Shown: one piece after another, positions 34,178 through 60,187 of the stretch
Position numbering within the stretch: position 1 is the stretch's first letter
Layout: every line of letters begins with the position of its first letter
NCBI GenBank assembly: GCA_964420375.1
Contig: CAYQTK010000001.1
Coordinates: 1-60,187, forward strand
Length of the DNA stretch: 60,187 nt
From: an uncultured bacterium
GTDB lineage: Bacteria; RBG-13-61-14; DATKZS01
Reading direction: 5' to 3'
Translations under genes and position numbers: made by a program
The notes under the pieces: generated by a model
What the model saw: the letters and a program-made list of their open reading frames with translations, nothing else
Told to the model about the DNA's origin: nothing
Database searches by the model: none

Positions 34178-35605
34178 TTACTCCTGTTCGGAAGGATCGG
34201 CGATCTTGTATTTTAGAGAAGGCCACCCCGCCATTTGTTCCTCGACCGGACCTTGGAACTCTCCCTTTAAAAACCTTTTTCTGATGACCTCGTACTGGGC
34301 CGGGCTTACTACGGGCGGCGACTTCCGGGCCCTGCCGTAGAGAATTCGGGTGGACAGAACAAGTCTTTGAAGCCGCTTTTCAGTCCATCCGAAAAGCGGG
34401 GTCGCGAGACGGTGGGCCTTACTCCACTGCTCGTTGGTGGTCGGGGGATCGAGTCCCATGTCAAGGCACATCTCCCACACCGGTGTGTCCGGATATGGTC
34501 TCAGTCCCTGGATGTCGTGATATACCCTGCCGCTCATCCGGTAGAGCTGGTCCATGAACTCGCGGGTCCGGGTCCTCTCTTCTTCCGTCTCTCCGGGGAC
34601 AAGCTGTATCCAGTTGCCGGAGGCGAAGATGCCTTCCCGGTCCAGGTTTTCGATCCCGGCCCTGATCTGCTCCGCGCTGAAGCCCTTGCGGAGTATCTTT
34701 AAGACCCGGTCCACACCCGACTCGAACCCGAAGGACAAAAACCGGCAGCCGCTGTGCCGGAGCCAGCCCGCGAACTCCCGGTCCACTATGTCTATCCTTG
34801 CAGTGGACACCCATGGCATGCCCACGCCTTCGATGACCTCTTTGCCCTGCTTAACCTTGCCGAAGGGGTTGTCGGATATCCACCTCACCATGTTGATCTT
34901 GAACCTCTTCTTAAGATAGCCCACCTGCTCGTTGAGGTAATCAGTGCTGTGGATGCGGAAGCGGCGGCGGTCGGGGTTTGACTGGTTGTAACAGAAGATA
35001 CACCGGTGGGGACAGCCCCTGGAAAGAGAGACCATCATCATCAGGTCGCCCTGCGCAGGGAAAAACTCCAGGTACTCGGAAAGGTTCAAAAGCTCCCACG
35101 CCGGCCGGAAGCGGTCCAGGGCGGAGTGGAAAGAGCCCACCGGGTTGATGACCGGCCCGTCCTCTTTGTATCCCGCTCCGGGGACCTCCCGCGGAAGGCT
35201 GCCTTCAGCAAGGACACGCGCAAAATCTATAACCGTAAGCTCGGCCTCCCCGGCGAGGATGTAATCAACGTAATCCGCGGACAAGGCAGTCTCCGGAACC
35301 ATGGAAGGATAGATGCCGCCCCAGACCACCGGCACGCCCGCAAAATGGACCGCTTGCGAGATATCAATGTCCTCGGCAAGCAAAGGGGTGGCAATAACGC
35401 TGAACCCCACGAACAAGGGCCTCTCCTCTGCAACAGCATCCAGTATCGCTTGCTTGCGTCCCTCCACCCGGTGGATGATCTTCACCCGGAAACCGGCCTG
35501 TAAAAGGGAATCCGCAAGATACAGGACACCGAAGGGAGGATACTTGCGATATACCCAGGGACGCTGCGCGGTAAGTATTATAAGCGGGGCTTCTCTCGAC
35601 ATCAT
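34178..35605 (-). CDS. B12-binding-domain radical SAM protein
   Basis: N-terminal Rossmann-like B12-binding region (FGVLYLADSL...) and LSRGCPHRCIFCYN (CX3CX2C). Confidence 0.85.
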   Translation of the reverse strand: MMSREAPLIILTAQRPWVYRKYPPFGVLYLADSLLQAGFRVKIIHRVEGRKQAILDAVAEERPLFVGFSVIATPLLAEDIDISQAVHFAGVPVVWGGIYPSMVPETALSADYVDYILAGEAELTVIDFARVLAEGSLPREVPGAGYKEDGPVINPVGSFHSALDRFRPAWELLNLSEYLEFFPAQGDLMMMVSLSRGCPHRCIFCYNQSNPDRRRFRIHSTDYLNEQVGYLKKRFKINMVRWISDNPFGKVKQGKEVIEGVGMPWVSTARIDIVDREFAGWLRHSGCRFLSFGFESGVDRVLKILRKGFSAEQIRAGIENLDREGIFASGNWIQLVPGETEEERTRTREFMDQLYRMSGRVYHDIQGLRPYPDTPVWEMCLDMGLDPPTTNEQWSKAHRLATPLFGWTEKRLQRLVLSTRILYGRARKSPPVVSPAQYEVIRKRFLKGEFQGPVEEQMAGWPSLKYKIADPSEQE

Positions 35606-35648: not shown

Positions 35649-36788
35649 TTACTTCCTGCGGAGCGCCTCCCTGGAGATGACCATCTTCTGGACCTCGCTG
35701 GTCCCCTCGTAGATAGTGGTCACCCGGGCGTCACGATAGAGCCGCTCGACCTGGAACTCGGTGGTGTACCCGTATCCGCCGTGCACCTGGAGCGCATCGT
35801 ATGCTGCTCGGTTCAAAGCCTCGGAGGCGAACAGCTTGGCCATGGAGGCCTCGCCGGTGAAGTTGTTTCCCTGCTCCTTCATGGAGGCTGCGGACAGGGT
35901 CATAAGCTTCGCCGCCTCGTAGGAGGTCGCCATGTCCGCGATCATCCACTGGATGGCCTGGTGGCCGGCGATCGGCTTGTTGAACTGGCGCCTCTCCTGC
36001 GCATAGCTTTTGGAAAGGTCCAGGCATGCGGCGAGCATGCCGGTGGCTTGCGCCGCGATTCCGATCCTGCCCGAATCCAGGGCCTGCGCAATGACCTTGA
36101 AACCTTCCCCCTCCCTGCCGATGCGGTTCTCTTCAGGCACTTCACAGTCTTCCAGGAGTATCTCCGCGGTGTCACTGGCGCGCAGTCCCATCTTCTCCAC
36201 CTTCCTGTTGACCGAAAGACCGGGGGTGTCCTTTTCCACTGCAAAGGCTGTAAGCCCCCGGCTTCCGCCCTCGCCGGTGCGGGCCAGCACGATGATGACG
36301 CCCGCGCGCGAGCCGTTGGTGATAAACAGCTTGGTCCCGTTCAACAGGTAGAGGTCCCCTCTCTTTTGGGCCTTGCAACTGACTTCGGAGAGGTTCGAGC
36401 CTGCTCCCGGCTCGGTGAGAGCAAATGCCCCCAGGACTTTGCCGGAGGCCATGGACGTGAGCAACCGTTCTTTCTGGCCGGGGCTGCCGTGGTTCAGAAG
36501 CGGCTCGCAGGAGAGGTTGGTCACGCTCATGGTGACCGCGGTGGATGAGCACGCATAGGCGATCTCCATGAGCGCGAGTACGTAAGCGACCGCGCCCACC
36601 TGGGAGCCGCCGTGCTCCTCAGGGACCATCATGCCTAAAAGGCCGAGCCGGGCCATCTCTTGAACGAGGTCTTCGGGAAACTCGCCGGTGCGGTCCGCGT
36701 TGTCCGCCCGCGGCGCCACTTCCTTGCGGGAGAACTGCTCGACCATGACCCGGATCATCTTCTGCTCTTCGGTTAAGGGAAAGTACAT
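35649..36788 (-). CDS. Acyl-CoA dehydrogenase (short/medium-chain, butyryl-CoA dehydrogenase-like)
   Basis: 379 aa. ALTEPGAGSN, the YEGTSEVQ catalytic-Glu motif and a typical ACAD N-terminus (LTEEQKMIR). Confidence 0.92.
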   Translation of the reverse strand: MYFPLTEEQKMIRVMVEQFSRKEVAPRADNADRTGEFPEDLVQEMARLGLLGMMVPEEHGGSQVGAVAYVLALMEIAYACSSTAVTMSVTNLSCEPLLNHGSPGQKERLLTSMASGKVLGAFALTEPGAGSNLSEVSCKAQKRGDLYLLNGTKLFITNGSRAGVIIVLARTGEGGSRGLTAFAVEKDTPGLSVNRKVEKMGLRASDTAEILLEDCEVPEENRIGREGEGFKVIAQALDSGRIGIAAQATGMLAACLDLSKSYAQERRQFNKPIAGHQAIQWMIADMATSYEAAKLMTLSAASMKEQGNNFTGEASMAKLFASEALNRAAYDALQVHGGYGYTTEFQVERLYRDARVTTIYEGTSEVQKMVISREALRRK

Positions 36789-36796
36789 TCCACACC

Positions 36797-37345
36797 TCAG
36801 GGAGTAAAAATAACGACCAGCAGCTCGGCGGGCTCCGCGCCCGGGTTCTTAAGCTGGTGCTTCTTGCCGGAGTCGAACCGGATGCTCTCGCCTGGCTGCA
36901 GGGTCCGGGTGTTCCTGCCCACCTTGATCCACAGCTTGCCGGACAAAACGTAGATGAACTCTTCGCCCTCGTGCTGATAGCCTACCTTGCGATGATCCGT
37001 CTTGGGGTCGATGGTCACCCGGAAGGCCATGAGGTGCTTTTCCGGGTCCTCGTCGGTAAGCGTCTCGTAAGCGTAATCCCGGGTCCTTGTTGCCATGGCT
37101 TTTTTCATCTTGCCCGGCGAGGTCTTCACCGGCTTGTCCGCGAGAAATGTCGAAGGGTCCACCGACAAGGTCCGCGACAGGGTGATGATCTCGGACACGT
37201 GGGGAAAAACCTTCTCCTCTTCCAGCTCTTCCAGGTAGGAAGGCTCCATGCCTACCTGCTCGCCGAGATCAGCCCGGGAAAGACCTTCCCCCTCCCGGAG
37301 CTTGCGAAGCCGGGCGCCGAAAGTATCTCCTTCTTTCTTTGCCAT
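36797..37345 (-). CDS. XRE-family HTH transcriptional regulator with C-terminal cupin domain
   Basis: FGARLRKLREGEGLSRADLGEQVGMEPSYLEELE (HTH_3) plus a cupin (HEGEEFIYVLSGKL...PGESIRFDS..H). ATG 37345 has GGAGGAACGG upstream. Confidence 0.85.
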   Translation of the reverse strand: MAKKEGDTFGARLRKLREGEGLSRADLGEQVGMEPSYLEELEEEKVFPHVSEIITLSRTLSVDPSTFLADKPVKTSPGKMKKAMATRTRDYAYETLTDEDPEKHLMAFRVTIDPKTDHRKVGYQHEGEEFIYVLSGKLWIKVGRNTRTLQPGESIRFDSGKKHQLKNPGAEPAELLVVIFTP

Positions 37346-38623: not shown

Positions 38624-39631
38624 TCAGGAGTCCCCCCCAAGGCGGAGCATGGACTTCATGATTTCCGGACTGGCCAGGATGCGGGCGGCTGCCGAGTAGG
38701 GGTCCATTTCACCGTTCTCCACCTGTCGGAAGACCTCGGAGACCTGCTCGTCATGCTCCCCCCGGATCCGTTCTCCAAGCTCGGCAAGGAGAAGCTCGAC
38801 CAGCCACCTCTTCAGGTAGTCCTGCCGGAAAGGCCCGATACGGGGCTTGTGCTTTAAAAACTCTTGGTGCTCCTCGATCTTGTCCGCCAGCTCCTTTACG
38901 CCGATGTTGTTCCTGGCCTGGGCCATGAGCACGGGGACCTCCCAGTTTTCGCCGCGCTCATGCATCTCCAGCATGGAGCGGACCTCGACGGAAAGCCGGT
39001 CCGCGCCGTCGCGGTCGGCCTTGTTGATCACGAAGAGGTCGCCGATCTCCATGAGGCCCGCCTTAAGTGTCTGCACCGTATCGCCGGCTTCGGGGACCAG
39101 CACCACCACGGTGGTGTCGGCAATGCCGATGATGTCAAGTTCGGTCTGACCCACTCCCACGGTCTCGATCATGATCCGATCCATGCCAAAGGCGTCCATC
39201 AAGCAGCCCATCTCCATGGTGGCCCGGGAAAGCCCGCCCTGCGAGCCGCGAGAGCCCAGCGAGCGGATGAAGACCCCCTGGTCCAGGGCGTGCTCCTGCA
39301 TCCTTACCCGGTCGCCGAGTACGGCCCCTCCGCTGAAGGGGCTGGAGGGGTCCACGGCGACCGCGCCCACTGTAAAGCCCCGGCTGCGCCACTCCCGGAT
39401 GAGCTGGTCTATCAGGGTCGACTTGCCCGCCCCCGGCGGACCGGTAATACCGAGACGCGGCACCCCCCTCATCCGGGAAGCCACCTGGGCCATGATCTTG
39501 TAAATCCCCGGCGGCCGGGACTCGATCATGGTCATCAGCCGGGCCAGGGCACGCCGGTCGCCTGCCAGCATCTTCTCCACCAGCTCTTTGCTTTCCGGGT
39601 CGGGTTCGGGGATATCGATTACTTCTTCCAA
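38624..39631 (-). CDS. meaB: MeaB/ArgK-type G3E-family GTPase (methylmalonyl-CoA-mutase-associated metallochaperone family)
   Basis: GITGPPGAGKSTL P-loop, the VETVGVGQ switch, NKAD and the N-terminal GDRRALARLMTMIE motif. TTG start at 39631. Confidence 0.9.
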   Translation of the reverse strand: MEEVIDIPEPDPESKELVEKMLAGDRRALARLMTMIESRPPGIYKIMAQVASRMRGVPRLGITGPPGAGKSTLIDQLIREWRSRGFTVGAVAVDPSSPFSGGAVLGDRVRMQEHALDQGVFIRSLGSRGSQGGLSRATMEMGCLMDAFGMDRIMIETVGVGQTELDIIGIADTTVVVLVPEAGDTVQTLKAGLMEIGDLFVINKADRDGADRLSVEVRSMLEMHERGENWEVPVLMAQARNNIGVKELADKIEEHQEFLKHKPRIGPFRQDYLKRWLVELLLAELGERIRGEHDEQVSEVFRQVENGEMDPYSAAARILASPEIMKSMLRLGGDS

Positions 39632-39811: not shown

Positions 39812-39824
39812 GAGAGGAGCATGG

Positions 39825-39840
39825 TTAGTCAAGCGACTAA
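39825..39840. promoter_or_regulatory. Perfect 6-4-6 palindrome TTAGTC-AAGC-GACTAA, candidate TetR operator
   Basis: It lies immediately downstream of the -10 element and upstream of the TetR start codon. This is the usual position for an autoregulatory operator. Confidence 0.4.
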
Positions 39841-39853
39841 ATCCGGGGGGAGA

Positions 39854-40513
39854 ATGGAAGGGTCGAACAAGAAAGAAGAGATATTAAAAGCGGCAAAGAA
39901 GCTGTTCGGCGAAGCTGGGTTTGACGCGGCCACCACCAGGGAGATATCCCGGGTGTCCGGCATCAACCAGGGGCTTCTCTATTATTACTTCGGCAACAAA
40001 GAGGCCCTGTTCGAGTCGGTTTTGGACCGTTACTTCGAGGAGCTGGAGGGCGAGCTGTTGGCAACGCTTTCCAGGGAGGGAGAGCTTACCGAGAGGCTCG
40101 CCGGAGTGATCGAGGCTTACATGGACTTTCTTCACCGGAATGAAGGGTTTTCGAAGATCATCCAGCGGGAGGCTGCAGGAGGCATTCACATGGAGGCCAT
40201 CCACAAAAGGCTGTCCCCCATATTCGAGCGGGGGCTTCAGATGATCCGGGAAGCATACCCCGGCGCCCGCAGAGGCGAGATGGCCGCGGACCAGGTGCTT
40301 TTAAGCTTCTACTCCATGATCGCGGGCTACTTCACGTGGAGGCCCATGATGGGAAAGCTCCTTGGCATTGATCCGGAGGAGAAGCCCCGGCTCGAGCTCC
40401 GCAAGCGGCACATGGCGAGGATGCTCGAGCTGGTTGCGGATGCAATCGGCAATGAGCGGACATCATTGTCCCTGAAAGAAGACATCACCCAACAGGAAAG
40501 GAGCGGACCATGA
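39854..40513 (+). CDS. TetR/AcrR-family transcriptional regulator
   Basis: KKEEILKAAKKLFGEAGFDAATTREISRVSGINQGLLYYYFGNKEALF is the TetR_N signature. GGGGGGAGA RBS. The track ORF starts at 39821. Confidence 0.9.
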   Translation: MEGSNKKEEILKAAKKLFGEAGFDAATTREISRVSGINQGLLYYYFGNKEALFESVLDRYFEELEGELLATLSREGELTERLAGVIEAYMDFLHRNEGFSKIIQREAAGGIHMEAIHKRLSPIFERGLQMIREAYPGARRGEMAADQVLLSFYSMIAGYFTWRPMMGKLLGIDPEEKPRLELRKRHMARMLELVADAIGNERTSLSLKEDITQQERSGP

Positions 40514-41547
40514 GAAAGATGAATCCACAGCTTGCCAAGACCCTTGGCCAGGCGGCCATGAAAGCCGTCCAGATCAGGAACAGCGGGGAGGGGAACCCCT
40601 TTCTGATCGGCCATTTCGTGACCAACCGCTGCCACAACAACTGCAAGAGCTGCTTGTGGAAGCACAACGACTGGGAGGACGTGCCGCTCGAAGACCTGAA
40701 GCGCTTTTACAGCGAGGCCGCGCAAGAAGGCTTTCTGGGCACCTTCCTCTCCGGCGGAGAGCCGTTTTTAAGAAAGGACATCGGCGAGCTGGCCCGCCAC
40801 GTAAAGGAGGAGTGCGGCATAGCCATTCTTTTCATCACTTCGGGCTGGTTTCTGGAAGAGAGGCTGGACGAGATCGCGCCTTATGCGGACATGATGATGT
40901 GGTCCATGGATTCCTCGGACCCGCAAAAGCACGATGAGATCAGGGGAACCGCCGGTCTTTTCGACAGGCTCATGAAAGGCGTAAAAAGGGTGAAGGCGGA
41001 GTACCCGGAGATGTCCTGCCAGACCAACGTTTGCGTTCAGAAAGGGATTGAGGACGAGATCGACGATCTTCTCAAGCTGCACGACGACCTGGGCATCCAG
41101 ATATCCTTTGACGTTATCTCCGAGTTCCGTCACGACGGGCAGGGCGGCCACTACACCGAGACCAACATGGCGCTCCCGCTTACCGAGCTTCGGGGGGTCT
41201 GCGAGTACATCCTGGAGAGGAAGAAACATGGCGCGCCGGTGTTGAACTCGGAGCGGTACTTCCAGTACTTCATAGACGGCAAGCCGGGTTACAATTGCCA
41301 TCTTCCCAAGCTGGCCATGTGCGTCGACGGCCGGGGCTACGTGGAGGACTGCCTGGACCTCGAACACCCCATCGCCAACATCCGGGAGACGCCTGTAAAG
41401 GAGATCCTTGCACTGCCCCGCTTAAAGAGCCTGCGGGAGATGGCGGAAGACTGCTGTACCTGTAACTCGCCCACCATGATCGACCTGTCCAACGTGTGGG
41501 AGGACCCGCAAATCCTGTTCGAGGACGGCGGCATCCAGGTGGGATAA
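40510..41547 (+). CDS. Radical SAM protein with Cys-rich (SPASM/twitch-like) C-terminal region
   Basis: NRCHNNCKSCLW (CX3CX2C), SGGEPFLRKD and C-terminal cysteines (CHLPKLAMCVDGRGYVEDC ... CCTCNSP). ATGA overlap with the TetR stop. Confidence 0.85.
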   Translation: MRKMNPQLAKTLGQAAMKAVQIRNSGEGNPFLIGHFVTNRCHNNCKSCLWKHNDWEDVPLEDLKRFYSEAAQEGFLGTFLSGGEPFLRKDIGELARHVKEECGIAILFITSGWFLEERLDEIAPYADMMMWSMDSSDPQKHDEIRGTAGLFDRLMKGVKRVKAEYPEMSCQTNVCVQKGIEDEIDDLLKLHDDLGIQISFDVISEFRHDGQGGHYTETNMALPLTELRGVCEYILERKKHGAPVLNSERYFQYFIDGKPGYNCHLPKLAMCVDGRGYVEDCLDLEHPIANIRETPVKEILALPRLKSLREMAEDCCTCNSPTMIDLSNVWEDPQILFEDGGIQVG

Positions 41548-42587
41548 TGCCCATTTTGAAGAACGCTCTACAGCCGATCATCCACCTGCTCGACCGCTCG
41601 AAAAAGGAGCAGGCGGAGAGACCGACTGCCCTCCAGGAAGGAACGCGCTTTCCGCGCTCTCCATGGGACCTGCGCACGGTGATCATCGTGTTTCCAAAAG
41701 ACAGCGGCTTTCGTTACCTGAACCTCAACACCACCCTGGGACTCACCGGCGTGCCCTTTGACCAGGTGAAAAATATCAGCGGACTCGAGCCGGCCGACTG
41801 CTTCGATCTCCAGTTCTGCCTCCAGGCTGAAGACGGCTATACATCTTATAAAAAGTATCATTCCGTCTGCCGGGACATAAGCTACACACCCGGCAAAGTC
41901 CACCTCGAGCTCGCGGGCAGGCTGTTCTACCAGGGGGAATGGCCCGCCTACTCCATTTTGTTCCATCATCCTGAAGAGGAGCTGTCCGTAAAAATGGAGC
42001 TCGACTCCTGGCAGGGATTCCAGTGGTGGTTTTACGCCCCCGCCCTCTACTGTCACAACACCACCTTTGCCTATGCGCGGCTGGAGGTTGAACAACACGG
42101 AGAACGTATTGCAATGACCACTCCTGCTCTCCACGACCACGGGTGGGGCAGGAACCTCCTTCCCCTGAGACCGGGGGTGGGGGTCTTCCGTTACGAGGTC
42201 ATGCGCTTCGGCGAGTCGGGTCACGCCATATCCTTGTGGTCGGAGGCCCCTTTGGGACTCCGGCTCAAGAACATTGGTCTGGTCCGGCCGGATGAGAAGA
42301 ACCTTTTCTATCCTGCCGGCTATAACTGCGACGTCCTGGAATGGGAAGAACACCAAAACTACGCGGGCTGCACTGTCCGCGTGCCCGCAAAGTGGCGCGG
42401 CTTTCAGGAGGGCAAGGCGCTTTCTTTTACTTATGAAGCTCTGCGCAGCACCGAGCCCCTGCCCCTGCTCGGCGAGGGCCTGATTTACGGGTTCGATTAC
42501 CAGGGAAGATTAACCGGCGCCATGGATAAACGGATCAAGGGCCGCGGCTACGTTGAGCAGCTCGGGTTATCAGGTCGCGGAAAGTAA
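41547..42587 (+). CDS. Hypothetical 346-aa protein of unknown function
   Basis: Start ATG 41547 overlaps the radical SAM stop (TAATG). It is Trp/aromatic-rich and looks like a soluble beta-type protein. I recognised no motif. The track ORF starts at 41496. Confidence 0.6.
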   Translation: MPILKNALQPIIHLLDRSKKEQAERPTALQEGTRFPRSPWDLRTVIIVFPKDSGFRYLNLNTTLGLTGVPFDQVKNISGLEPADCFDLQFCLQAEDGYTSYKKYHSVCRDISYTPGKVHLELAGRLFYQGEWPAYSILFHHPEEELSVKMELDSWQGFQWWFYAPALYCHNTTFAYARLEVEQHGERIAMTTPALHDHGWGRNLLPLRPGVGVFRYEVMRFGESGHAISLWSEAPLGLRLKNIGLVRPDEKNLFYPAGYNCDVLEWEEHQNYAGCTVRVPAKWRGFQEGKALSFTYEALRSTEPLPLLGEGLIYGFDYQGRLTGAMDKRIKGRGYVEQLGLSGRGK

Positions 42588-42699: not shown

Positions 42700-44844
42700 T
42701 TGAACGAGCGCAATCCGCGGATTCTCGCCATAGACGCGGGCGGGACCATGACCGACACCTTTATAGTGGACACTGCCGGCGACTTCGTTGTGGGCAAGGC
42801 GCGGTCCACGCCTGAAGACGAGTCGCTGGGGCTCGTCCGCAGTGCAGAGGACGCGCTTTCGCACTGGGGCATGAAAACGGGAGAGGCTTTTCCTTTGATG
42901 GTGGCGGGCATCTACTCGGGCACGGTCATGTTGAACCGCCTGCTTTCAAGAAACGGTCTCAGGCTGGGTGTGATCGTGAGCAAGGGACAAGAGGACTACT
43001 TCCTGCTCGAGCGCGGTGTGCAGACTTACCTGGGCTTTTCCTACTCCGACCGGCTGCACGTGGCCACTCACTATCATAACCGGCCCATAGTTCCCAAAAG
43101 CCGCGTGAGAGGGGTGTTCGGCAGGATCGACATCTTCGGCGAAGAGGTCCTGCCTCTACAGGAGGAAGACGTGGGGGGCGTGGTTGCCGAGCTTCTCGAC
43201 CAAGACATCGAGGGCCTTTGCGTTTGCCTGCTTAACTCCTATCGAAACCCCGTCCACGAGCAGGAGGTCGGCAGAATAGCCGCAGAGTTGATGCAGGAGA
43301 TCGGCAAGCATGTGCCCCTGTTCTTGTCGTCCGAGTACTATCCCCTGCGCAACGACCTGCCCCGCCTCAATACCACGGTGATCGAAGCTTATGCTGCCGA
43401 GCCTTCGCGGGGGCAGCTTAAAAAGGTCTCGGAAAGGATCAGGGACAGGGGCGGAAATTTCGACGTCCGGGTCATGGCCGCCCATGGCGGGATGATTGGT
43501 GCGGAGACCCGCGAGCTGGCCCGCACTCTCATATCCGGGCCTATCGGCGGAGTAGTGGGTGCGAAGTACCTTGCCCGGCATATGGGCCATGACAACGTCG
43601 TCTGCACCGATGTGGGCGGGACCAGCTTCGACCTCGCCCTGGTCACCGAGGGAGCCTGCACGGTCAAGGCATACCCGGACATGGCCAGGTTCCTGCTTTC
43701 CATACCCATGATCAAGATAGACTCGATGGGAGCGGGCACCGGAAGCTACGTGCGCGTAAACCCGAACTCGGCAAGGATCGAGATCGGGCCCGACTCCGCG
43801 GGAGCGAGTATAGGAGTGTGTTGGCCGGACGGAGGAGTGGAAACCGCCACCATCACCGACTGCTCGGTTGTGCTCGGCGTCATAAACCCCGATTACTTCC
43901 TGGGCGGAGAGATGCGGCTTGATCGGGACCGGGCTATAAAGGCCGTCCGGGAACAGGTGGCAAAGCCGCTTAACATCGGTGTTTATGAAGCGGCATCCGG
44001 AGTGGTCGAGCTGTTGGAGGAGAACCTCAAAGGCGACGTCCTGAGCACGGTGCTCGGCAAAGGGTACTCGCCCGCCAACTACGTGCTTTTGTCCTACGGC
44101 GGCGGAGGACCGGTGCACGTGGCCGGCTATACGCGGGGCCTTGGATTTGCAGACGTAATCGTGCCGGCATGGGCCGCGGGCTTTTCCGCGTTCGGTTGCG
44201 CCTGCGCCGACTTCGAGTACCGTTACGAGGCCACCACCGACATCCCCATTGCAGCGGGGCTTCCGCCCGAGTGGAAAAGCGCCATGACAGGCGTGCTGAA
44301 AAAGACGTGCGAAAAGCTGAAAACCAGGATAGAAGAGGAGTTCCATAAGACCGAGCACGGTGGCAAAACCATAACCTACAAGACCTACTTCCGCATCCAG
44401 TACATGGGACAGCTCGACGATCTCGAGATACTCTGTCCCCCAGAAAAGCTGGAGACAGCCGAAGACCTGGACGCATTGCTCGAGGCGTTCGAGGACACCT
44501 ATGGCCGGGTATACGCGCTCGCAGCCAAGTCTCCGGAACTCGGGTACGCAGTGACCCAGGCAGTTGTAACCGGCATGGTCGAGATTGAAAAGCCGGTCAT
44601 ACCGGAAGAGCCCGAAGGGGGAAAAGAGCCTGACCATGCTGCCTGGAAAGAAGAGCGGCCGGTCTTCTGGAGCAAGGAGTGGATAAAGACGGGAGTGTGG
44701 GACATGCCGGGCCTTCGAAACGGGAACGTCATCTCCGGGCCCGCAATCATCGAGTCGCCGGCAACCACATTTGCCGTACCGCCGGATGCGCAGGCACGCC
44801 TTGACGCGCACCGGCTGTTTCACCTTGAAAAGAAGAGGGATTAA
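42700..44844 (+). CDS. Hydantoinase A/oxoprolinase-family protein, acetone (ketone) carboxylase beta-subunit-like
   Basis: ILAIDAGGTMTDTFIVD ATPase N-terminus and DVGGTSFD. 714 aa. TTG start with AAAGGAGAG RBS. Confidence 0.85.
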   Translation: MNERNPRILAIDAGGTMTDTFIVDTAGDFVVGKARSTPEDESLGLVRSAEDALSHWGMKTGEAFPLMVAGIYSGTVMLNRLLSRNGLRLGVIVSKGQEDYFLLERGVQTYLGFSYSDRLHVATHYHNRPIVPKSRVRGVFGRIDIFGEEVLPLQEEDVGGVVAELLDQDIEGLCVCLLNSYRNPVHEQEVGRIAAELMQEIGKHVPLFLSSEYYPLRNDLPRLNTTVIEAYAAEPSRGQLKKVSERIRDRGGNFDVRVMAAHGGMIGAETRELARTLISGPIGGVVGAKYLARHMGHDNVVCTDVGGTSFDLALVTEGACTVKAYPDMARFLLSIPMIKIDSMGAGTGSYVRVNPNSARIEIGPDSAGASIGVCWPDGGVETATITDCSVVLGVINPDYFLGGEMRLDRDRAIKAVREQVAKPLNIGVYEAASGVVELLEENLKGDVLSTVLGKGYSPANYVLLSYGGGGPVHVAGYTRGLGFADVIVPAWAAGFSAFGCACADFEYRYEATTDIPIAAGLPPEWKSAMTGVLKKTCEKLKTRIEEEFHKTEHGGKTITYKTYFRIQYMGQLDDLEILCPPEKLETAEDLDALLEAFEDTYGRVYALAAKSPELGYAVTQAVVTGMVEIEKPVIPEEPEGGKEPDHAAWKEERPVFWSKEWIKTGVWDMPGLRNGNVISGPAIIESPATTFAVPPDAQARLDAHRLFHLEKKRD

Positions 44845-44855
44845 AGGAGAGAGAC

Positions 44856-47087
44856 ATGACAAGCCATTCGCGAAAAAGTCCCTTCTCAAAAGGACCGGTG
44901 GGATGGGAGGGACGGACGCTCATGGAGATGCTGGAGCGTTCCGAGAAGCTGTGGAGCGAGACCGGCCGCTACCAGGGGCTTGACAAGCTGGAGCTAAAAG
45001 AAGCCGATCCCATCCGTTACGAAAAGATATTCGCCAAGCTCCGGGGAGGCCTGGTCAACGCCCGCGAGACGGCAATGAACATCAGCGCGTCTCCCATAGT
45101 AAAGGAGATAGGCGAGCTGTGCTTCGCCTTTTACACCCCCGAGGGCGACAGCGTAGCGCTTTCCACCGGTATAATCGTTCACGTCCATACCATGAGCGAC
45201 GCCATCAAGTTCATGATAAGAAAGGGGTACGAGGACAACCCCGGCATAGCGGGCGGAGACATCTTTTCAAACAACGACCCGGTAATCGGGGACGTGCATA
45301 ACGCTGACGTGCAGACCCTTGTGCCCATATTCCGGGAAGGCGAGCTTCTGGGCTGGGCCGGAGGAGTGACCCACGTGATCGACATCGGGGCGTCAACCCC
45401 CGGGAGCGTGCCGGTAGGACCGACCTCCCGGTACGAAGACGGACTGGCACTGACCGCGCTCAAGGTGGGGGAGAAAGACACTCTGTTCCGGCACCACGAA
45501 ATAATGTGCGAGATGAGAGTGAGAACGCCCAAGTACTGGAAGCTGGATGAAAGGACCCGCATAGCCGGCTGCCACATGATCCGCGACGCAGTGGAGAGGA
45601 TAGTGCGCGAGGAAGGCATTGACGCGTTCAAGAGCTTCATGCGCGAGGTCATCGAGGAAGGCCGCCAGAGCTTTGTAAGCCGGATTAAAGAGCTTACCAT
45701 ACCCGGCAGCTATGACGCGACCACCTTTAACGCGGTGACCTTCAAGGACGAGCCGGGCCTGCCTCCGCGGGCGCGGACCGACTCGTTGATGCACGCGCCT
45801 CTCCGGGTGGACATCGGCGGATCGGGCGAGTTCGAGCTGTCCATGGACGGCGCAAGCCCGTGGGGATATCACAGCTTCAACTGCACGCCCAGCGCCATGC
45901 AGGGCGCCTTGTGGGTGCTCTTGAGCCAGACCGTGGTGCCCAACGACAAGGTCAACGACGGCGCTTACCTGGCAACCAGGAGCTTTTTCCCGCCCGGGTC
46001 GTGGTCCAATCCCCAGAACCCCGAGGTCAGCACGGGCGCGGCCTGGGGATTTCTTATCCCTTCGTTCACCGGACTTTTCCGGATGCTCGGCCGGGCATTT
46101 TACGCCCGGGGGTTCCACGAAGAGGTCATGGCTTCATACGGCATGACCATGAACGCACTGCAGGGCGGGGGCACGGACCACATGGGCAAGCCGTGCAGCA
46201 TCCTGAACTTCGAGATCAGCACCGTGGGCGGCGGAGCGGGTGCAGTCAAGGACGGGCTCGATTTTGCGGCAGCGATGTGGAACCCGGAAGGCGACATGGC
46301 AGACGTGGAGATATGGGAGATTCTCGAGCCGCTTCTCTACCTGGGCCGCAGGGTCAAGCCGAACACCGCGGGACCGGGCAGGTTCCGGGGAGGATCGGGG
46401 TTCGAGTCGCTGCGCATGGTGTGGAAGACAAACGATCTGGTCCTGCAGAACGCCGGGGAGGGCAACACCTTTTCCGCTCCCGGCATCTTCGGAGGATACC
46501 CTGCAGCCGCGGGCTATCGCCACAACGTGCACCAGGCCGACCTGTTGGAGAACGCCCGCGCGGGCAGGCCCTACCCGGTGCGCGAGCGGGACCCGGGCGA
46601 CTCGGACATCTCCCGGATGGTGGAAGGCGGACACGAGATGGACAAGAGGGCAATGACGTATCCCATGCCTTACGAGCAGGGAGACCTCTACCTGTCGTGG
46701 CTCCGGGGAGGAGGCGGCCTGGGAGACCCGCTGGAACGCGAGCCCTCCCGGGCGGCGGATGATGTAAACCAGGGGTTCCTGCTTCCGGACTATGCAGCCA
46801 AGGTCTACGGTGTAAAGATCGAGCAGGGACCGGCTGGCGATTACGCTGCGGACGAGGACGAAACCCGGAAACTGAGGCGGGAGATAAAGAGTAAGCGCGC
46901 CGAGCGGAGCATGCCCGTCCGGGACTTTTACGAGAGGGAGAAACAGCGCGTTATTAAAGGCGGGTTTAGAAAGCCGGTCCGGGAATGCTATAACTCGTGC
47001 ATGGCTCTGTCGGTGGAGTGGGGGAACAAGTTCCGGGAGTTCTGGGGCCTGCCGCCTGACTTTTCATTTTCACAAGGAGAGGACTGA
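44856..47087 (+). CDS. Hydantoinase B/oxoprolinase-family protein, acetone (ketone) carboxylase alpha-subunit-like
   Basis: 743 aa, hydantoinase_B-type sequence (DPIRYEKIFAKL...; GGGLGDPLER near the C-terminus). AAAGGAGAGAG RBS. Confidence 0.85.
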   Translation: MTSHSRKSPFSKGPVGWEGRTLMEMLERSEKLWSETGRYQGLDKLELKEADPIRYEKIFAKLRGGLVNARETAMNISASPIVKEIGELCFAFYTPEGDSVALSTGIIVHVHTMSDAIKFMIRKGYEDNPGIAGGDIFSNNDPVIGDVHNADVQTLVPIFREGELLGWAGGVTHVIDIGASTPGSVPVGPTSRYEDGLALTALKVGEKDTLFRHHEIMCEMRVRTPKYWKLDERTRIAGCHMIRDAVERIVREEGIDAFKSFMREVIEEGRQSFVSRIKELTIPGSYDATTFNAVTFKDEPGLPPRARTDSLMHAPLRVDIGGSGEFELSMDGASPWGYHSFNCTPSAMQGALWVLLSQTVVPNDKVNDGAYLATRSFFPPGSWSNPQNPEVSTGAAWGFLIPSFTGLFRMLGRAFYARGFHEEVMASYGMTMNALQGGGTDHMGKPCSILNFEISTVGGGAGAVKDGLDFAAAMWNPEGDMADVEIWEILEPLLYLGRRVKPNTAGPGRFRGGSGFESLRMVWKTNDLVLQNAGEGNTFSAPGIFGGYPAAAGYRHNVHQADLLENARAGRPYPVRERDPGDSDISRMVEGGHEMDKRAMTYPMPYEQGDLYLSWLRGGGGLGDPLEREPSRAADDVNQGFLLPDYAAKVYGVKIEQGPAGDYAADEDETRKLRREIKSKRAERSMPVRDFYEREKQRVIKGGFRKPVRECYNSCMALSVEWGNKFREFWGLPPDFSFSQGED

Positions 47088-47575
47088 TGCAGGTATATGA
47101 CGACAAGACCCTGGCCGACCTTTGGGAGGGGAATCTGGACCACGAAAAGCTCCGGCAGATACAGGCGCGTTTCAAAGACCGCGACAGGTTCGAGCGTTTC
47201 GTGGCTTATTGCCGGGAGCGCATAAGCTGGGACGACCGGATACTGCTGCCCCTCCAGCCGCATCTTTTTATAGTCGAGCGAGCTGACGGCATGCGGATCA
47301 TCAAGTGCGACTGCGGCCGGGAGTTCGGCGACCATCGCGAAAACTGGAAGTTCGAGGCCCGGATTTTCGTTCGCGACAGCGACGAGCTGATGCAGGAGGT
47401 CTATCCCCCGCTCATGCACTGCAACCCGGAGTGGATGGAACTCCGCGAGTACTACTGCCCGGGCTGCTATGCTCTTCTCGAGGTCGAGATGGTTCCCCCC
47501 GGCTATCCCATAATCCACGACTTCCGGCCGGACCTGGAAAGCTTCTACAGAGACTGGCTGGGAAAGGAGCTTTAG
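47087..47575 (+). CDS. Acetone carboxylase gamma-subunit-like zinc protein
   Basis: 162 aa. By my recollection of the Xanthobacter AcxC sequence it is collinear throughout: WDD.ILLPL.P.LFIV, CDCG, NWK..ARI.VRD, REYYCPGC and PVIHDF.PD...FY..WLG. TGATG overlap with the upstream gene. Confidence 0.85.
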   Translation: MQVYDDKTLADLWEGNLDHEKLRQIQARFKDRDRFERFVAYCRERISWDDRILLPLQPHLFIVERADGMRIIKCDCGREFGDHRENWKFEARIFVRDSDELMQEVYPPLMHCNPEWMELREYYCPGCYALLEVEMVPPGYPIIHDFRPDLESFYRDWLGKEL

Positions 47576-47579
47576 GGCG

Positions 47580-50117
47580 GTGGCTGTATTTAAAGACCGC
47601 GGCGAACTCGAGAAAGTTATGTCCGCCATGTTCGACCGGATCAAGCAGGACGAGTTCATGGTGAAAGAGCTTGTGGCCGCAAACCTGAAGCTGCGCTTCC
47701 GCTATAGCGATCCTGACACGGTCATGACCGTTGACCTTACTTGTGACCCCCCGGAGTACGGCTTCGACGAGCAGGGTGAGGCTGACGTGGAGATGTTCCA
47801 GTCTGCGGACACCGGCCACCGGTTCTGGCTGGGCAGGCTCAGCGTGGTCCGGGCCATGGCCACCGGCAAGATATCTGCGCGCGGCAATCCGGCCAAGGCC
47901 ATGAAGCTACTGCCCGCGATCAAGCCCGCGTTCGAGATGTATCCCCAGGTGTTGAAAGACCTGGGCATGGAGCATCTCATCCCGGAAGCCGATTCCGGGA
48001 CCCGGAAAAGAAAGCGGGGATCGCGGTGGAGAAGTATTTTAAAAAGACAGCGGCAGGCAGACAAGTCCCTGCTTCAGAAGGACACATGGGCAACGGTATC
48101 GTCTCCGTTGGAAGACAAGACGTTTCGGTGCCGGGATTACTCCTTGCCGGAGGATGAGGACGCGCTCCGTATCGAGCTTATGAACCGGATGTTGCTGGTC
48201 CGCGAGTTCGAACAGATGCTTTTCGAAAAGTGGAAAAGGGGAGTTGTTCCCACTACCGCCATACACCTTTCCACGGGGCAGGAAGCGGTTGCCGTGGGGA
48301 TATGCTCCGCACTGCTTGCCGACGACTGCATCGCCACCACCCACCGGGGCCACGGCCACATGATCGCCAAGGGCGCGGACGTTAACCGGATGATGGCCGA
48401 GATATTCGGCAAGGCTGATGGGCTTTGCAAGGGCAAGGGCGGGACCATGCACGTGACCGACCGGGAGGCCGGCGCGCTGGGGGCCAACGGTATTGTGGGG
48501 GCCTCCGCCCTGTTGGGAACGGGGGCTGCACTGGCTTTCAAGCTCAAGGCAGAAGACCGGGCGGCAGTGGCGTTCTTCGGTGACGGCGCAGCCAACCAGG
48601 GCATGGTGCACGAGGCCATGAACATGGCTGCCATATGGGACCTGCCCGTCCTGTTCGTGGTCGAGAACAACGGCTATGGAGAGTTCACGCCCCAGAAACG
48701 GCACATGAAGATAGAAAAGATATCCGAGCGCGCCCGGGGTTATGGGATAACCTCTCTCACCATTGACGGAAACGACGTTGAGCTGGTCCATGAAACCGCC
48801 CGGGCGCTTATGGAAGACATAAGAAACGGCGGCGGCCCGGCGCTCCTCGAGTGCGTGACCTACCGCTGGCACGGCCACATGCTGGGCGACAACGAACAGT
48901 ACCGCACGCGCGAAGAGGTCGAGACCTGGATGGAGAAGTGTCCCATAAAACGCCAGCGGGACAAGCTCGTCGGTGAAGGCAAACTGTCCCCGGAGGCTGA
49001 AGAGTCTCTCCTGGCGAGGGCGCGGGAGGTCGTGCTGGACGCGATGAGCTTTGCCCACGAGTCCCCCGAACCCGATGCCCGAGAACTGGCCACTGACGTG
49101 TACGTTTTCGAGCCTTTACCGCCTGAGCCGCAAGCGCCGGCTGAGGTCTCGCTCCTGACCGGGTCAGCGGCCATCAACCTGGCGCTGGCAGAGGAGATGC
49201 GCCGAGACCCGGCAGTGGTGCTGCTGGGCGAAGACGTGGGCCTGGGCGGTTACATGGCGGTGACCAACGGGCTTTTAGAGGAGTTCGGTGAAAAGCGCGT
49301 CCTGGACACTCCCATCAGCGAGTACGCCATAGTAGGCGCTTCAGTGGGAGCGGCCATGTCCGGCCTGCGGCCGGTGGCCGAGCTGTTGTTCAGCGACTTT
49401 ATCACCTGCGCCATGGACCCCATTGTGAACCAGGCAGCCAAGCTTAGATACATGTCCGGCGGACAGTACCGCGTTCCCCTGGTGGTAAGGCTTCCCGGAG
49501 GCGCGGGCCTGGCCCTGGCGGCGCAACACTCCCAGAGCCTCGAATCCATGCTCATGGGGGTCCCCGGACTTATCATCGCAGCGCCGAGCTCCCCCCGCGA
49601 CTGCCGGGCCATGCTGAAGACAGCCATCCGAAGCGATAACCCCGTTCTTTTTTTCGAGCACAAGCTCCTCTACCTGGCACAGGGGGAGGTCCCCCACGAG
49701 GAAGAGCTCCTGCCGTTCGGCAAAGCAAAAGTGGTGAGAAGCGGCCGGGACATTACCATCGTGTCCCTGCTCTATACGGTGGACCTGGCGCTGGAGGCCG
49801 CGGAAACATTGGCGAAGGAGGGGGTTGACGCCGAGGTTATAGACCTTCGCTGCCTGTCGCCTCTGGATACGGACACTGTATTGGAATCGGTCGCCGGGAC
49901 CGGCAGGCTCGTCACCGTGGAAGAGGGGCCTGCCCGCGGGGGATGGGGCGCGGAGATAGTGGCCCGGACGGCAACCTGCGCCCACGGCTTGTTGAAGGCC
50001 CCTCCCGTCAGGATCGGAGGAACCGACAATCCCCTGCCTTATAACAAGCTCATGGAGATGCTGTCCGTGCCCGGGGTCAAAGACGTGCTCGAGAGGATAG
50101 CCGGGATTATGGGCTGA
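47580..50117 (+). CDS. Triple fusion: SCP2 sterol-carrier-like domain + TPP-dependent 2-oxoacid/acetoin dehydrogenase E1 alpha + E1 beta
   Basis: N-terminus LRFRYSDP...GKISARGNPAKAMKLLPAIKP (SCP2). E1 alpha GDGAANQG...ENNGY TPP motif. E1 beta VVLLGEDVG...DTPISEYAIVGASVGAAMSGLRPV and a transketolase-C-like end. GTG start 4 nt after the gamma-subunit stop. Confidence 0.85.
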   Translation: MAVFKDRGELEKVMSAMFDRIKQDEFMVKELVAANLKLRFRYSDPDTVMTVDLTCDPPEYGFDEQGEADVEMFQSADTGHRFWLGRLSVVRAMATGKISARGNPAKAMKLLPAIKPAFEMYPQVLKDLGMEHLIPEADSGTRKRKRGSRWRSILKRQRQADKSLLQKDTWATVSSPLEDKTFRCRDYSLPEDEDALRIELMNRMLLVREFEQMLFEKWKRGVVPTTAIHLSTGQEAVAVGICSALLADDCIATTHRGHGHMIAKGADVNRMMAEIFGKADGLCKGKGGTMHVTDREAGALGANGIVGASALLGTGAALAFKLKAEDRAAVAFFGDGAANQGMVHEAMNMAAIWDLPVLFVVENNGYGEFTPQKRHMKIEKISERARGYGITSLTIDGNDVELVHETARALMEDIRNGGGPALLECVTYRWHGHMLGDNEQYRTREEVETWMEKCPIKRQRDKLVGEGKLSPEAEESLLARAREVVLDAMSFAHESPEPDARELATDVYVFEPLPPEPQAPAEVSLLTGSAAINLALAEEMRRDPAVVLLGEDVGLGGYMAVTNGLLEEFGEKRVLDTPISEYAIVGASVGAAMSGLRPVAELLFSDFITCAMDPIVNQAAKLRYMSGGQYRVPLVVRLPGGAGLALAAQHSQSLESMLMGVPGLIIAAPSSPRDCRAMLKTAIRSDNPVLFFEHKLLYLAQGEVPHEEELLPFGKAKVVRSGRDITIVSLLYTVDLALEAAETLAKEGVDAEVIDLRCLSPLDTDTVLESVAGTGRLVTVEEGPARGGWGAEIVARTATCAHGLLKAPPVRIGGTDNPLPYNKLMEMLSVPGVKDVLERIAGIMG

Positions 50118-50166
50118 GGTAAATCATGATTTGTCAGTGAAAGGCAGGTATGATACATCTAATGTC

Positions 50167-50340
50167 TTGTCAAGATTAAAATGACGCATACCGTGCGAGC
50201 CACTTTATTCGCGACTGAAGTCGCTCGCACTAAATTCATTCTTCTTGGAGGCAACAAAGAACGCTTGACAGCTTATGTTTTGTCAAATGCTTTTTGGGAA
50301 TAGAAGAGAAGCGTGCGAGCGGCTGATACCGCGATTTTCG
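50167..50340 (+). repeat. REP/REPIN-like family A: one full element (50167-50271) plus a second partial tandem element (50279-50340)
   Basis: TTGTCAAG...TGACGCATACCGTGCGAGCCACT...GCGACTGAAGTCGCTCGCAC...CGCTTGACAG, then TTGTCAAA...GCGTGCGAGCGGCTGATACCGCGA. Collinear with 32263-32367. Confidence 0.8.
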
Positions 50341-59628: not shown

Positions 59629-60187
59629 ATGACTAAAAGAAAAGTAGTTGTAAGCGTGTTGGCATTGATGTTGGCCGTGGGTTTTTCCGTGCGGGCTGAA
59701 GACAAGGACCCCGAGGCTCTGTGGGGAAAGCAGACCAGGGGTTGGGGACCCGGTCATAACGCCGAGATAGACGGCAACAAGGTGACGCTGGACAAGACGG
59801 CGGAGATCATCAAGGTTGAAGGCAATGCCAAGAAATACTGCATCTGGTCCGGCGGCGAGTCAGTGCTTTGCGGCTCCAACAAGAAGTCCATTACCGGCAA
59901 AACACTTCCCGCAGGCACTTACACGGTCCTTCCCGGGCTCTCCAAGGGACAGAAGTCCGCAAAGGTCAAAATACACATGGAGTACGTTGATTCCGACTCG
60001 GGATCGAACTCCGGGGCTGATGAAGAGTCCACCCTGTTGTGGGGAAAGCAGATCAAGGGTTGGGGACCTGGTCATAATGCGGAGAAAGACGGCAACAAGG
60101 TAACGCTCAAAAGCTCTGCAAAGATCGTCAAAGTGGAAGGCAACGCCAAACGCTACTGCATCTGGTCCGGCGGCAAATCAGTTCTTT
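59629..60187 (+). CDS. Partial (3'-truncated by window edge) secreted protein with tandemly duplicated 106-residue module. Not listed in the ORF track.
   Basis: ATG 59629 has AAAGGAGAG upstream. My hand translation found no stop codon to nt 60187. Signal peptide MTKRKVVVSVLALMLAVGFSVRA. The module LWGKQ.(R/K)GWGPGHNAE.DGNKVTL......I.KVEGNAK.YCIWSGG.SVL occurs twice, 318 nt apart. Confidence 0.75.
   Translation, partial: MTKRKVVVSVLALMLAVGFSVRAEDKDPEALWGKQTRGWGPGHNAEIDGNKVTLDKTAEIIKVEGNAKKYCIWSGGESVLCGSNKKSITGKTLPAGTYTVLPGLSKGQKSAKVKIHMEYVDSDSGSNSGADEESTLLWGKQIKGWGPGHNAEKDGNKVTLKSSAKIVKVEGNAKRYCIWSGGKSVL

Follow-up and report, generated by a model that had tools for sequence, protein, structure and literature searches.

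A recurrent single-chain fusion of an SCP2 domain with an AcoAB/PDH-type E1 enzyme, coupled to acetone carboxylase genes in a small sub-clade

Introduction

Textbooks describe E1 components as parts of lipoyl-dependent mega-complexes. A gene at positions 47,580 to 50,117 of contig CAYQTK010000001.1 (GenBank assembly GCA_964420375.1), from an uncultured bacterium (GTDB lineage Bacteria; RBG-13-61-14; DATKZS01), belongs to a monophyletic lineage in which such an enzyme has become a single chain with an SCP2 sterol-carrier domain and without E2 or E3 neighbours, and it raises the question of what an E1 does in this form. The stretch analyzed, referred to here as the window, is the contig from position 1 to position 60,187. 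A prediction made from the sequence alone had described the fusion, noted an adjacent carboxylase gene, and proposed that the SCP2 domain could deliver a hydrophobic substrate to a stand-alone thiamine diphosphate (ThDP) enzyme that acts without a lipoyl acceptor. We find that the fusion, called SCP2-E1 below, is real and recurrent, and that it represents a variation on a known kind of enzyme and not a kind of its own. The original prediction was largely right in spirit, although it overlooked a wider partnership with a radical SAM gene.

Results

An SCP2 domain, a linker and two E1 modules share one reading frame

The gene is divided as follows; all features lie on the forward strand.

47580..50117, +: whole gene, SCP2 domain, linker and fused E1 alpha/beta ThDP enzyme; 845 amino acids (aa), GTG start, one open frame
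47580..47984, +: SCP2-fold domain, residues 1-135 (family profile, homologue matches and AlphaFold2 model)
47985..48164, +: flexible linker, residues 136-195, with a basic/aromatic first half and an acidic end (LPEDEDA)
48165..49115, +: E1 alpha (PP) module, residues 196-512 (PF00676, 263 bits)
48579..48671, +: ThDP-binding motif GDG...NN, G334-N364 (read from the translation; G334, D335, G336 and N364 conserved)
49155..49679, +: E1 beta (PYR) module, residues 526-700, with E581 and H650 (PF02779, 154 bits)
49719..50084, +: Transketolase_C-type C-terminal domain, residues 714-835 (PF02780, 115 bits)

The predicted single polypeptide of SCP2, E1 alpha and E1 beta is borne out by Pfam, by structure modeling followed by Foldseek, and by the family profile. 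In the 845-aa protein the Pfam families E1_dh (203-500, 263 bits), Transket_pyr (529-698, 154 bits) and Transketolase_C (714-835, 115 bits) all score above their gathering thresholds. Alpha and beta thus lie on a single open reading frame (ORF) and not on separate chains of the alpha2beta2 type, and the protein probably forms a homodimer. An AGGAG sequence is found 9 nt 5' of the GTG start, and the start is likely correct because full-length homologues (n=30) are alignable from residue 1. The identical 845-aa protein is encoded on a second, separately assembled contig. In addition, four samples of a single microbial-mat study, one of which may be the sample from which the window was assembled, yielded contigs that cover the ORF with zero indels. 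The sole variant among them is an A>G change at 48698, a synonymous third position of Lys373. Resequencing had been suggested as a way to reveal stop codons that split the ORF into alpha and beta genes; no stop codon separates alpha from beta in the contigs of these four samples.

The SCP2 assignment of the N-terminus fared less simply. Taken alone, residues 1-204 match PF02036 with an E-value of 0.015 and 16.1 bits (up to 17.3), below the gathering score of 21.3, a result that by itself would have spoken against the prediction. However, PF02036 is matched by 20 of 20 aligned homologues (E<0.1; best E 1.8e-8), and a family profile of the N-terminal domain reaches E ~6e-4 with SCP2 domains of known structure, those of MFE-2 and yeast SCP2. 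An AlphaFold2 model of residues 1-135 has a pLDDT of 93.6, and its top 47 Foldseek matches in the PDB are all SCP2 folds (TM 0.66/0.77), among them MFE-2 SCP-2L, SCP2, alkyl-sulfatase C-termini and UbiJ. Judged by the homologues and the model, the N-terminus has the SCP2 fold. The domain contains 18 invariant columns across 20 sequences, including R39, D52, Q74, F82, W83, G102 and L110-A113.

Both the SCP2 and the E1 parts of the full-length model (pLDDT 84.5) are predicted with confidence, and the linker of approximately 60 residues between them is disordered, with residues 138-156 below 50. Most of 30 homologues have a linker with the same pattern of R/K and W/F/L residues (for example SRWRSILKRQR, WLARLRRALAF and WERRLRALW), with a median length of 62 and a median net charge of +3. 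The first half of the linker is possibly an amphipathic, membrane-seeking element.

This SCP2 subtype is also found apart from E1 enzymes. A search of 1.84 billion representatives with the SCP2-domain profile returned 981 matches at E<=1e-3 and 469 at 1e-10, many of them stand-alone proteins of about 140 aa. The subtype is C-terminal on iron-containing alcohol dehydrogenases (P0131, P0164, P0151, P0156), with two copies in P0131, which suggests that it serves as a portable module of enzymes that act on hydrophobic alcohols and ketones. A second, stand-alone copy occurs in the genome from which the window comes (G000:C47:24333-24758, reverse strand, equivalent to L183:8331-8828; 96 bits to the family profile), where it adjoins a BcrAD/BadFG-type ATPase gene at a contig end.

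The E1 core retains the catalytic residues

From established knowledge of pyruvate dehydrogenase (PDH) we take GDG-X(26)-NN to be the ThDP-binding motif, E581 the ThDP-activating glutamate, and H433 and H650 the catalytic histidines. The GDG...NN and THRGHGH motifs, H433, E581 and H650 are kept in at least 97% of the 138 rows of an alignment of the SCP2-E1 family and its relatives. Both histidines used in reductive acylation are intact in the translated protein. Fourteen positions of the E1 alignment are specific to the SCP2 clade, and several of these are larger hydrophobic or aromatic residues (Phe369 directly after NNGY, Tyr558, Tyr630 and Met342).

The core is of the AcoAB/PDH kind. The match to human PDH E1 alpha scores 206 bits, compared with 138 bits for E1 alpha of the branched-chain 2-oxoacid dehydrogenase (BCKD), and human PDH E1 beta is matched with 262 bits and a TM of 0.94. 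The NCBIfam model of PDH E1 beta gives 353.6 bits, above its subfamily cut-off of 321. The PDH E1 alpha equivalog TIGR03182 gives 333.3 bits, under its cut-off of 393.85; the E1 alpha proteins of the E2/E3 operons of Priestia and Streptococcus mitis likewise fall under this cut-off, with 375 and 362 bits. Models of the transketolase and 1-deoxy-D-xylulose 5-phosphate (DXP) synthase families score 115 and 105 bits, far under their cut-offs of 488 and 466. The full-chain model aligns with human transketolase over about 720-740 columns (TMt 0.67-0.71).

The architecture recurs and arose once

The original prediction had overstated how unusual the fusion is. A word-indexed search returned at least 120 clusters at 51-75% identity, nearly all with 98-100% query coverage and lengths of 832-890 aa, and at least 115 full-length clusters have the SCP2-E1 architecture. 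Precomputed PF02036 matches exist for several clusters, and some NCBI records are already titled 'SCP2 sterol-binding domain-containing protein'; the members so named come from Polyangiaceae, Sandaracinaceae, Schekmanbacteria, Thermodesulfobacteriota, Anaerolineales and Planctomycetota. A search with the N-terminal region returned 7 proteins, a number that is limited by word-sharing sensitivity and is not usable as a count of the architecture. When metagenomes were scanned with seeds taken only from N-terminal peptide patterns, 243 stretches were found, of which 80 loci were kept for analysis of their neighbourhoods, and in these 80 loci the SCP2 domain runs on into E1 alpha-beta wherever the contig permits. 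A literature search found no paper describing a fusion of SCP2 with a ThDP-dependent E1 or a matching pathway.

When a tree was built from E1 columns alone, all 60 SCP2 bearers fell into a single clade with a support of 99 within the AcoAB/PDH-type E1s, and the fusion thus arose once. The E1s that surround this clade mostly have E2 neighbours. Some E1 alpha/beta relatives have neither an SCP2 domain nor a nearby E2; these form a clade (L021, L041, L035, L070, L071, L075) from the genera Pseudomonas, Neisseria, Enterovibrio, Cupriavidus and Inquilinus. Occurrence of the fusion is patchy: the gene is absent from genomes of the genus and family to which the window belongs, and one genome of the same order carries an SCP2-E1 with 63% identity.

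E2 and E3 partners are absent from the loci

The predicted lack of a nearby E2 or E3 holds for the window and for the family. Queries for both were taken from the alpha-beta-E2-E3 operon of Streptococcus mitis (locus L048), and tblastn with these streptococcal E2 and E3 sequences found no match in the 60-kb window. None of the 28 SCP2-type loci flanked by 3 kb or more on each side has an E2 or E3; these loci span many lineages, and the fetched flanks extended up to 10 kb each. In comparison, non-SCP2 relatives with at least 3 kb downstream have an E2 in 41 of 62 cases and an E3 in 36 of 62. An adjacent E2/E3 in relatives, which had been named as a finding that would speak against a stand-alone enzyme, was therefore not seen at the well-flanked loci.

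The search was extended to the genome, which is approximately 96% complete. A six-frame search found no match to PF00198 (2-oxoacid_dh), and the only true E1_dh gene in the genome is that of SCP2-E1. The proposal of an enzyme without a lipoyl acceptor agrees with the lack of an E2 in the genome, but the genome does encode LipA, GcvH and dihydrolipoyl dehydrogenase (Lpd), the latter two elsewhere than in the window. We infer that SCP2-E1 works without a lipoyl acceptor.

The gene closes an operon with an acetone carboxylase homologue

Upstream of SCP2-E1 the window contains the following genes.

39821..40513, +: TetR-family regulator at the operon head (a TetR gene is found in 8/52 loci)
40510..41547, +: radical SAM/SPASM enzyme, overlapping the TetR gene by 4 nt
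41547..42587, +: orphan 346-aa protein with DHGWGR and GYVEQLG motifs; start and radical SAM stop overlap as TAATG
42700..44844, +: acetone carboxylase beta homologue, AcxA-like (Hydantoinase_A), 69% identical to its L196 counterpart
44856..47087, +: acetone carboxylase alpha homologue, AcxB-like (Hydantoinase_B), 709 bits over the full length to 5M45_A and 5SVB_A
47087..47575, +: acetone carboxylase gamma homologue, AcxC-like (PF08882, 147 bits; 167 bits over the full length to 5SVB_C)

The order is therefore TetR, radical SAM/SPASM, orphan, AcxA-, AcxB- and AcxC-like genes and SCP2-E1, with a gap of 112 nt between the orphan and AcxA-like genes. As had been noted, the GTG start of SCP2-E1 lies 4 nt past the stop of the gamma (Acetone_carb_G) gene, and this close spacing was confirmed. 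Sequence comparison shows the upstream carboxylase to be closely homologous to true acetone carboxylase. A scan of the operon for promoters and terminators gave counts not above shuffled expectation.

The suggestion of functional coupling to the carboxylase stands in part. The arrangement recurs in two other lineages, at 67-71% identity. In P0006 (67%; L196) the radical SAM, orphan and AcxABC genes are followed by SCP2-E1, which overlaps the preceding gene by 4 nt, and downstream is a convergent thiolase gene; in P0004 (71%) AcxB and AcxC are followed after a 4-nt gap by SCP2-E1. The protein from the window and its four nearest relatives form one well-supported clade of five, and AcxABC is directly upstream in three of these. 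Identities among the Acx-linked loci are 66-76% for Acx and 67-72% for E1, as expected for co-inheritance. The coupling is real, but it is confined to this small sub-clade, and most of the family is without it. The other relatives retain different parts of the operon: in P0003 (75%, the closest) the orphan gene is directly 5' of SCP2-E1, P0005 (66%) has TetR, radical SAM and SCP2-E1, and P0007, L084 and L089 have (TetR), radical SAM, orphan and SCP2-E1.

Across the 52 loci with enough upstream sequence, the radical SAM/SPASM gene is the most widely shared neighbour of the family (13/52, compared with 8/52 for TetR and 6/52 for the orphan). The orphan family consists of 85 clusters, every one annotated as 'hypothetical', whose members are Trp-rich and have invariant DHG.G and GY.EQLG motifs. 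In most cases a SPASM radical SAM gene precedes the orphan gene, sometimes with no E1 present (L177), and in other cases the orphan gene stands alone (L179). The DHGWGR motif suggested a CrtC/AttH-like hydratase, but this candidate was rejected, as there was no Pfam match at E=10 and no PDB match with profiles of 4 and 23 sequences. Maturation by the SPASM enzyme of a ribosomally synthesized and post-translationally modified peptide was likewise rejected because the window has no precursor ORF between the TetR and radical SAM genes. L002 and L003 do have small upstream ORFs, but these show no conservation.

Other neighbours vary between sub-clades. A gene for an SRPBCC/START-like lipid-binding protein lies upstream in the genome of the same order and in L085 and L086 (the L087 and L088 contigs are too short to show it). 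In L099, L103, L115, L121, L123, L125 and L129 a class-III aminotransferase gene (414 aa) is convergent downstream together with a gene for a 273-aa protein with SCP2 similarity. Elsewhere the neighbours are a saccharopine-dehydrogenase-like reductase gene, FadL and MMPL genes, or unrelated housekeeping genes, and candidate TRAP transporter genes, read from the sequences, stand beside some members. Upstream of the radical SAM gene in L003 and L089 are an acetoacetate-decarboxylase-family gene (165 bits), an acyl-CoA dehydrogenase gene and a 3beta-HSD/epimerase gene, in company with radical SAM, orphan and SCP2-E1. This set of genes is another link to beta-ketoacid or ketone chemistry, in a lineage without Acx.

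Two features of the window flank the operon. Divergent from it lies a gene for a MeaB/ArgK-type GTPase (38624-39631, reverse strand, 283 bits), with no mutase gene seen adjoining, and beyond this gene are genes for a B12-binding radical SAM protein (34178-35605), an acyl-CoA dehydrogenase (35649-36788) and an XRE-cupin regulator (36797-37345). Past the SCP2-E1 gene, at the intergenic positions 50163-50200, contig depth rises from about 5-9 to 86-268 and many contigs end, which points to a multi-copy repeat in this intergenic region.

Discussion

A possible E2-independent lyase or carboligase for hydrophobic acyloins

The explanation that we favor, with somewhat less than even confidence, is that SCP2-E1 is an E2-independent, SCP2-assisted ThDP lyase or carboligase for a hydrophobic acyloin-type substrate, which in this operon supplies AcxABC with a ketone. 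What we infer in this explanation is the class of substrate, the reaction direction and the hand-over to the carboxylase. The protein would act as a single-chain PP-PYR-TK_C enzyme of AcoAB/PDH-type E1 descent with no E2/E3 complex. Its SCP2 domain, on the flexible linker, would capture a hydrophobic carbonyl substrate and bring it to the ThDP site. An alpha-hydroxyketone (acyloin) or a related compound would then be cleaved non-oxidatively, with release of a carbonyl fragment, and the ThDP-bound acyl-anion fragment would be protonated off or transferred to another carbonyl acceptor. The fragment released in this operon would most likely be acetone or a methyl ketone, and the acetone-carboxylase homologue, translated together with SCP2-E1, would carboxylate it. 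Preparation of the substrate may fall to the radical SAM enzyme and the orphan protein.

For a ThDP enzyme to break the bond beside a carbonyl, what departs must be CO2, an acyl group or, in the case of an alpha-hydroxyketone, a carbonyl compound. The acetoacetate that the carboxylase makes belongs to none of these classes, and the most direct link between AcoAB-type and Acx chemistry would therefore lie upstream of the carboxylase, in the cleavage of a tertiary acyloin that releases acetone. Such a cleavage is documented for AcoAB: in the absence of AcoC and AcoL it converts methylacetoin to acetone and 'active acetaldehyde', a unit that is passed to other carbonyls (PMC3744081). The neighbours with a hydrophobic theme elsewhere in the family (the SRPBCC/START protein, the second SCP2 protein, FadL and MMPL) also count in favor of a hydrophobic substrate, as do the iron-containing alcohol dehydrogenases that bear this SCP2 subtype and the clade-specific shifts toward hydrophobic or aromatic residues in the E1 part.

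Denitrifying Marinobacter strains reportedly carboxylate isoprenoid methyl ketones and hydrate squalene anaerobically, and isoprenoid termini are for this reason an attractive candidate substrate. A more specific and distinctly doubtful version of our proposal is an anaerobic 'acetone-clipping' route, encoded by the operon, that acts on isoprenoid or other gem-dimethyl lipids. The orphan protein and the SPASM enzyme, acting as a BtrN/anSME-like dehydrogenase, would turn a lipid terminus into a tertiary alpha-hydroxyketone. The SCP2-tethered E1 would cleave this compound, as AcoAB does methylacetoin, to acetone or a methyl ketone and an acyl-ThDP fragment, and AcxABC would carboxylate the ketone. 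If true, this would be a new E2-free catabolic E1 chemistry and would supply a missing step of anoxic isoprenoid degradation in sediments and mats.

Several observations weigh against the lyase or carboligase that we favor. Neither biochemical data nor literature were found for any member of the SCP2-E1 family, and the 845-aa protein on its own is below the Pfam SCP2 threshold. The closest relative has no Acx genes between the orphan gene and the E1, no carboxylase was found by tblastn at any of the 80 metagenome loci, and AcxABC is absent from most family members; the link to ketones may therefore be a local recruitment. The genome encodes LipA (347 bits), GcvH (156 bits) and Lpd (485 bits), and H650, the lipoamide-protonating histidine of canonical E1, is retained. 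A lipoyl acceptor supplied in trans is nonetheless unlikely, and LipA, GcvH and Lpd are the set expected for a glycine cleavage system. Finally, AcoAB alone degraded neither acetoin nor methylacetoin in vivo and tended to condense (PMC3744081), which favors the carboligase direction.

Alternative explanations

That direction is the basis of the alternative that survives best, although we consider it unlikely: a biosynthetic or assimilatory carboligase that decarboxylates a 2-oxoacid, for example pyruvate, and adds the acyl-anion to a hydrophobic aldehyde or ketone held by the SCP2 domain. The product, a lipid acyloin or tertiary alcohol, would be a signal, a lipid precursor, or the result of an ATP-free ketone activation parallel to Acx. 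AcoAB without E2/E3 does condense pyruvate or acetoin with acetone to methylacetoin (PMC3744081), and the class-III aminotransferase and double-SCP2 genes convergent downstream of some members (cluster C1) would fit acyloin-to-amino-alcohol chemistry. However, a TetR-headed operon with a catabolic acetone carboxylase, and with a thiolase in L196, looks degradative, and no polyketide synthase, fatty acid synthase or glycosyltransferase genes recur beside SCP2-E1.

A canonical oxidative E1 appears quite improbable. Such an enzyme would reductively acylate a lipoyl protein encoded elsewhere, either GcvH or an E2 that falls in the assembly gaps, Lpd would re-oxidize the carrier, and the SCP2 domain would do no more than widen the substrate range. 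The retention of H433 as well as H650 and the presence of LipA, GcvH and lipoamide dehydrogenase agree with this, and in a genome of about 96% completeness a gene such as that for E2 could be missing. However, the six-frame search gave no PF00198 match, E2/E3 are found at none of the 28 well-flanked family loci whereas E2 is present at 41 of 62 loci of non-SCP2 relatives, and there is no acyltransferase to unload a lipoyl carrier.

The weakest reading, a plain decarboxylase of long-chain or isoprenoid 2-oxoacids that would yield an aldehyde one carbon shorter (as in alpha-oxidation) and have no mechanistic link to the carboxylase, would suit the native decarboxylation of 2-oxoacids by E1 enzymes and the fatty-acid-like substrates implied by the SCP2 domain and acyl-CoA dehydrogenase neighbours, but it is disfavored by nearest relatives that are aco-type and not BCKD-type (206 vs 138 bits) and by the lack of an aldehyde dehydrogenase recurring beside SCP2-E1, and it leaves the tight, recurrent translational coupling to AcxC unexplained.

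Implications

The SCP2-E1 lineage occurs in several phyla, mostly in metagenomes of anoxic habitats. If the cleavage or building of acyloins that we favor is true, it would be a new reaction type in anaerobic lipid, isoprenoid or ketone metabolism, and it would account for the acetone carboxylase genes in such operons of anaerobe-type organisms. The enzyme would also be a natural E2-free, single-gene ThDP carboligase for bulky ketones, of a kind that has been engineered from AcoAB for methylacetoin synthesis. The locus in addition brings up the orphan protein family and its radical SAM partner, neither of which has an assigned function.

Comparison with known systems

The nearest cultured relatives, from Priestia endophytica and Streptococcus mitis, are 44-45% identical to the E1 core of SCP2-E1. 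Their loci are operons of E1 alpha, E1 beta, E2 and E3, followed by a sigma-54 activator gene in Priestia and by an ORF read as a putative lipoate ligase in S. mitis, and we read them as the aco layout. The AcoA and AcoB proteins of Bacillus, Pelobacter, Pseudomonas and streptococci have the THRGHGH, GKGGSMH, GDG...NN and HSQS motifs in common with SCP2-E1. However, SCP2-E1 differs from AcoAB (acetoin:dichlorophenolindophenol oxidoreductase) in its alpha-beta fusion, N-terminal SCP2 domain, basic linker and 14 clade-specific residues, and its locus is not an acoABCL-type operon, being without AcoC, AcoL and lipoate ligase.

The best matches among solved structures are the alpha2beta2 PDH E1s of human and Geobacillus (1NI4, 3EXE, 1W85), which share the ThDP site and both catalytic histidines. 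Unlike these, SCP2-E1 is fused, has no E2 partner, and has the phosphorylation-loop serine replaced (HGHM). Transketolase and DXP synthase are, like SCP2-E1, single chains of PP, PYR and TK_C domains that need no E2, but by phylogeny SCP2-E1 is an AcoAB/PDH-type E1 instead. The acetone-activating ThDP enzyme of Desulfococcus biacutus was considered as a family match and rejected; it is of the acetolactate-synthase type (COG0028), and that genome has no acetone carboxylase.

The addition of an SCP2 fold to an enzyme with a hydrophobic substrate has parallels in MFE-2 (SCP-2L), the SCPx thiolase, the alkyl sulfatases SdsA1 and Pisa1, and UbiJ. In SCP2-E1, however, the domain is N-terminal, is followed by a long, disordered basic linker, and is joined to a ThDP enzyme. 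The carboxylase genes of the window have an order and subunit sizes that we take to be those of AcxA, AcxB and AcxC of the published operon. Compared with AcxABC of Xanthobacter and Aromatoleum (5SVB, 5M45), they are set apart by their position, between a radical SAM/orphan pair and SCP2-E1 and under a TetR-family regulator.

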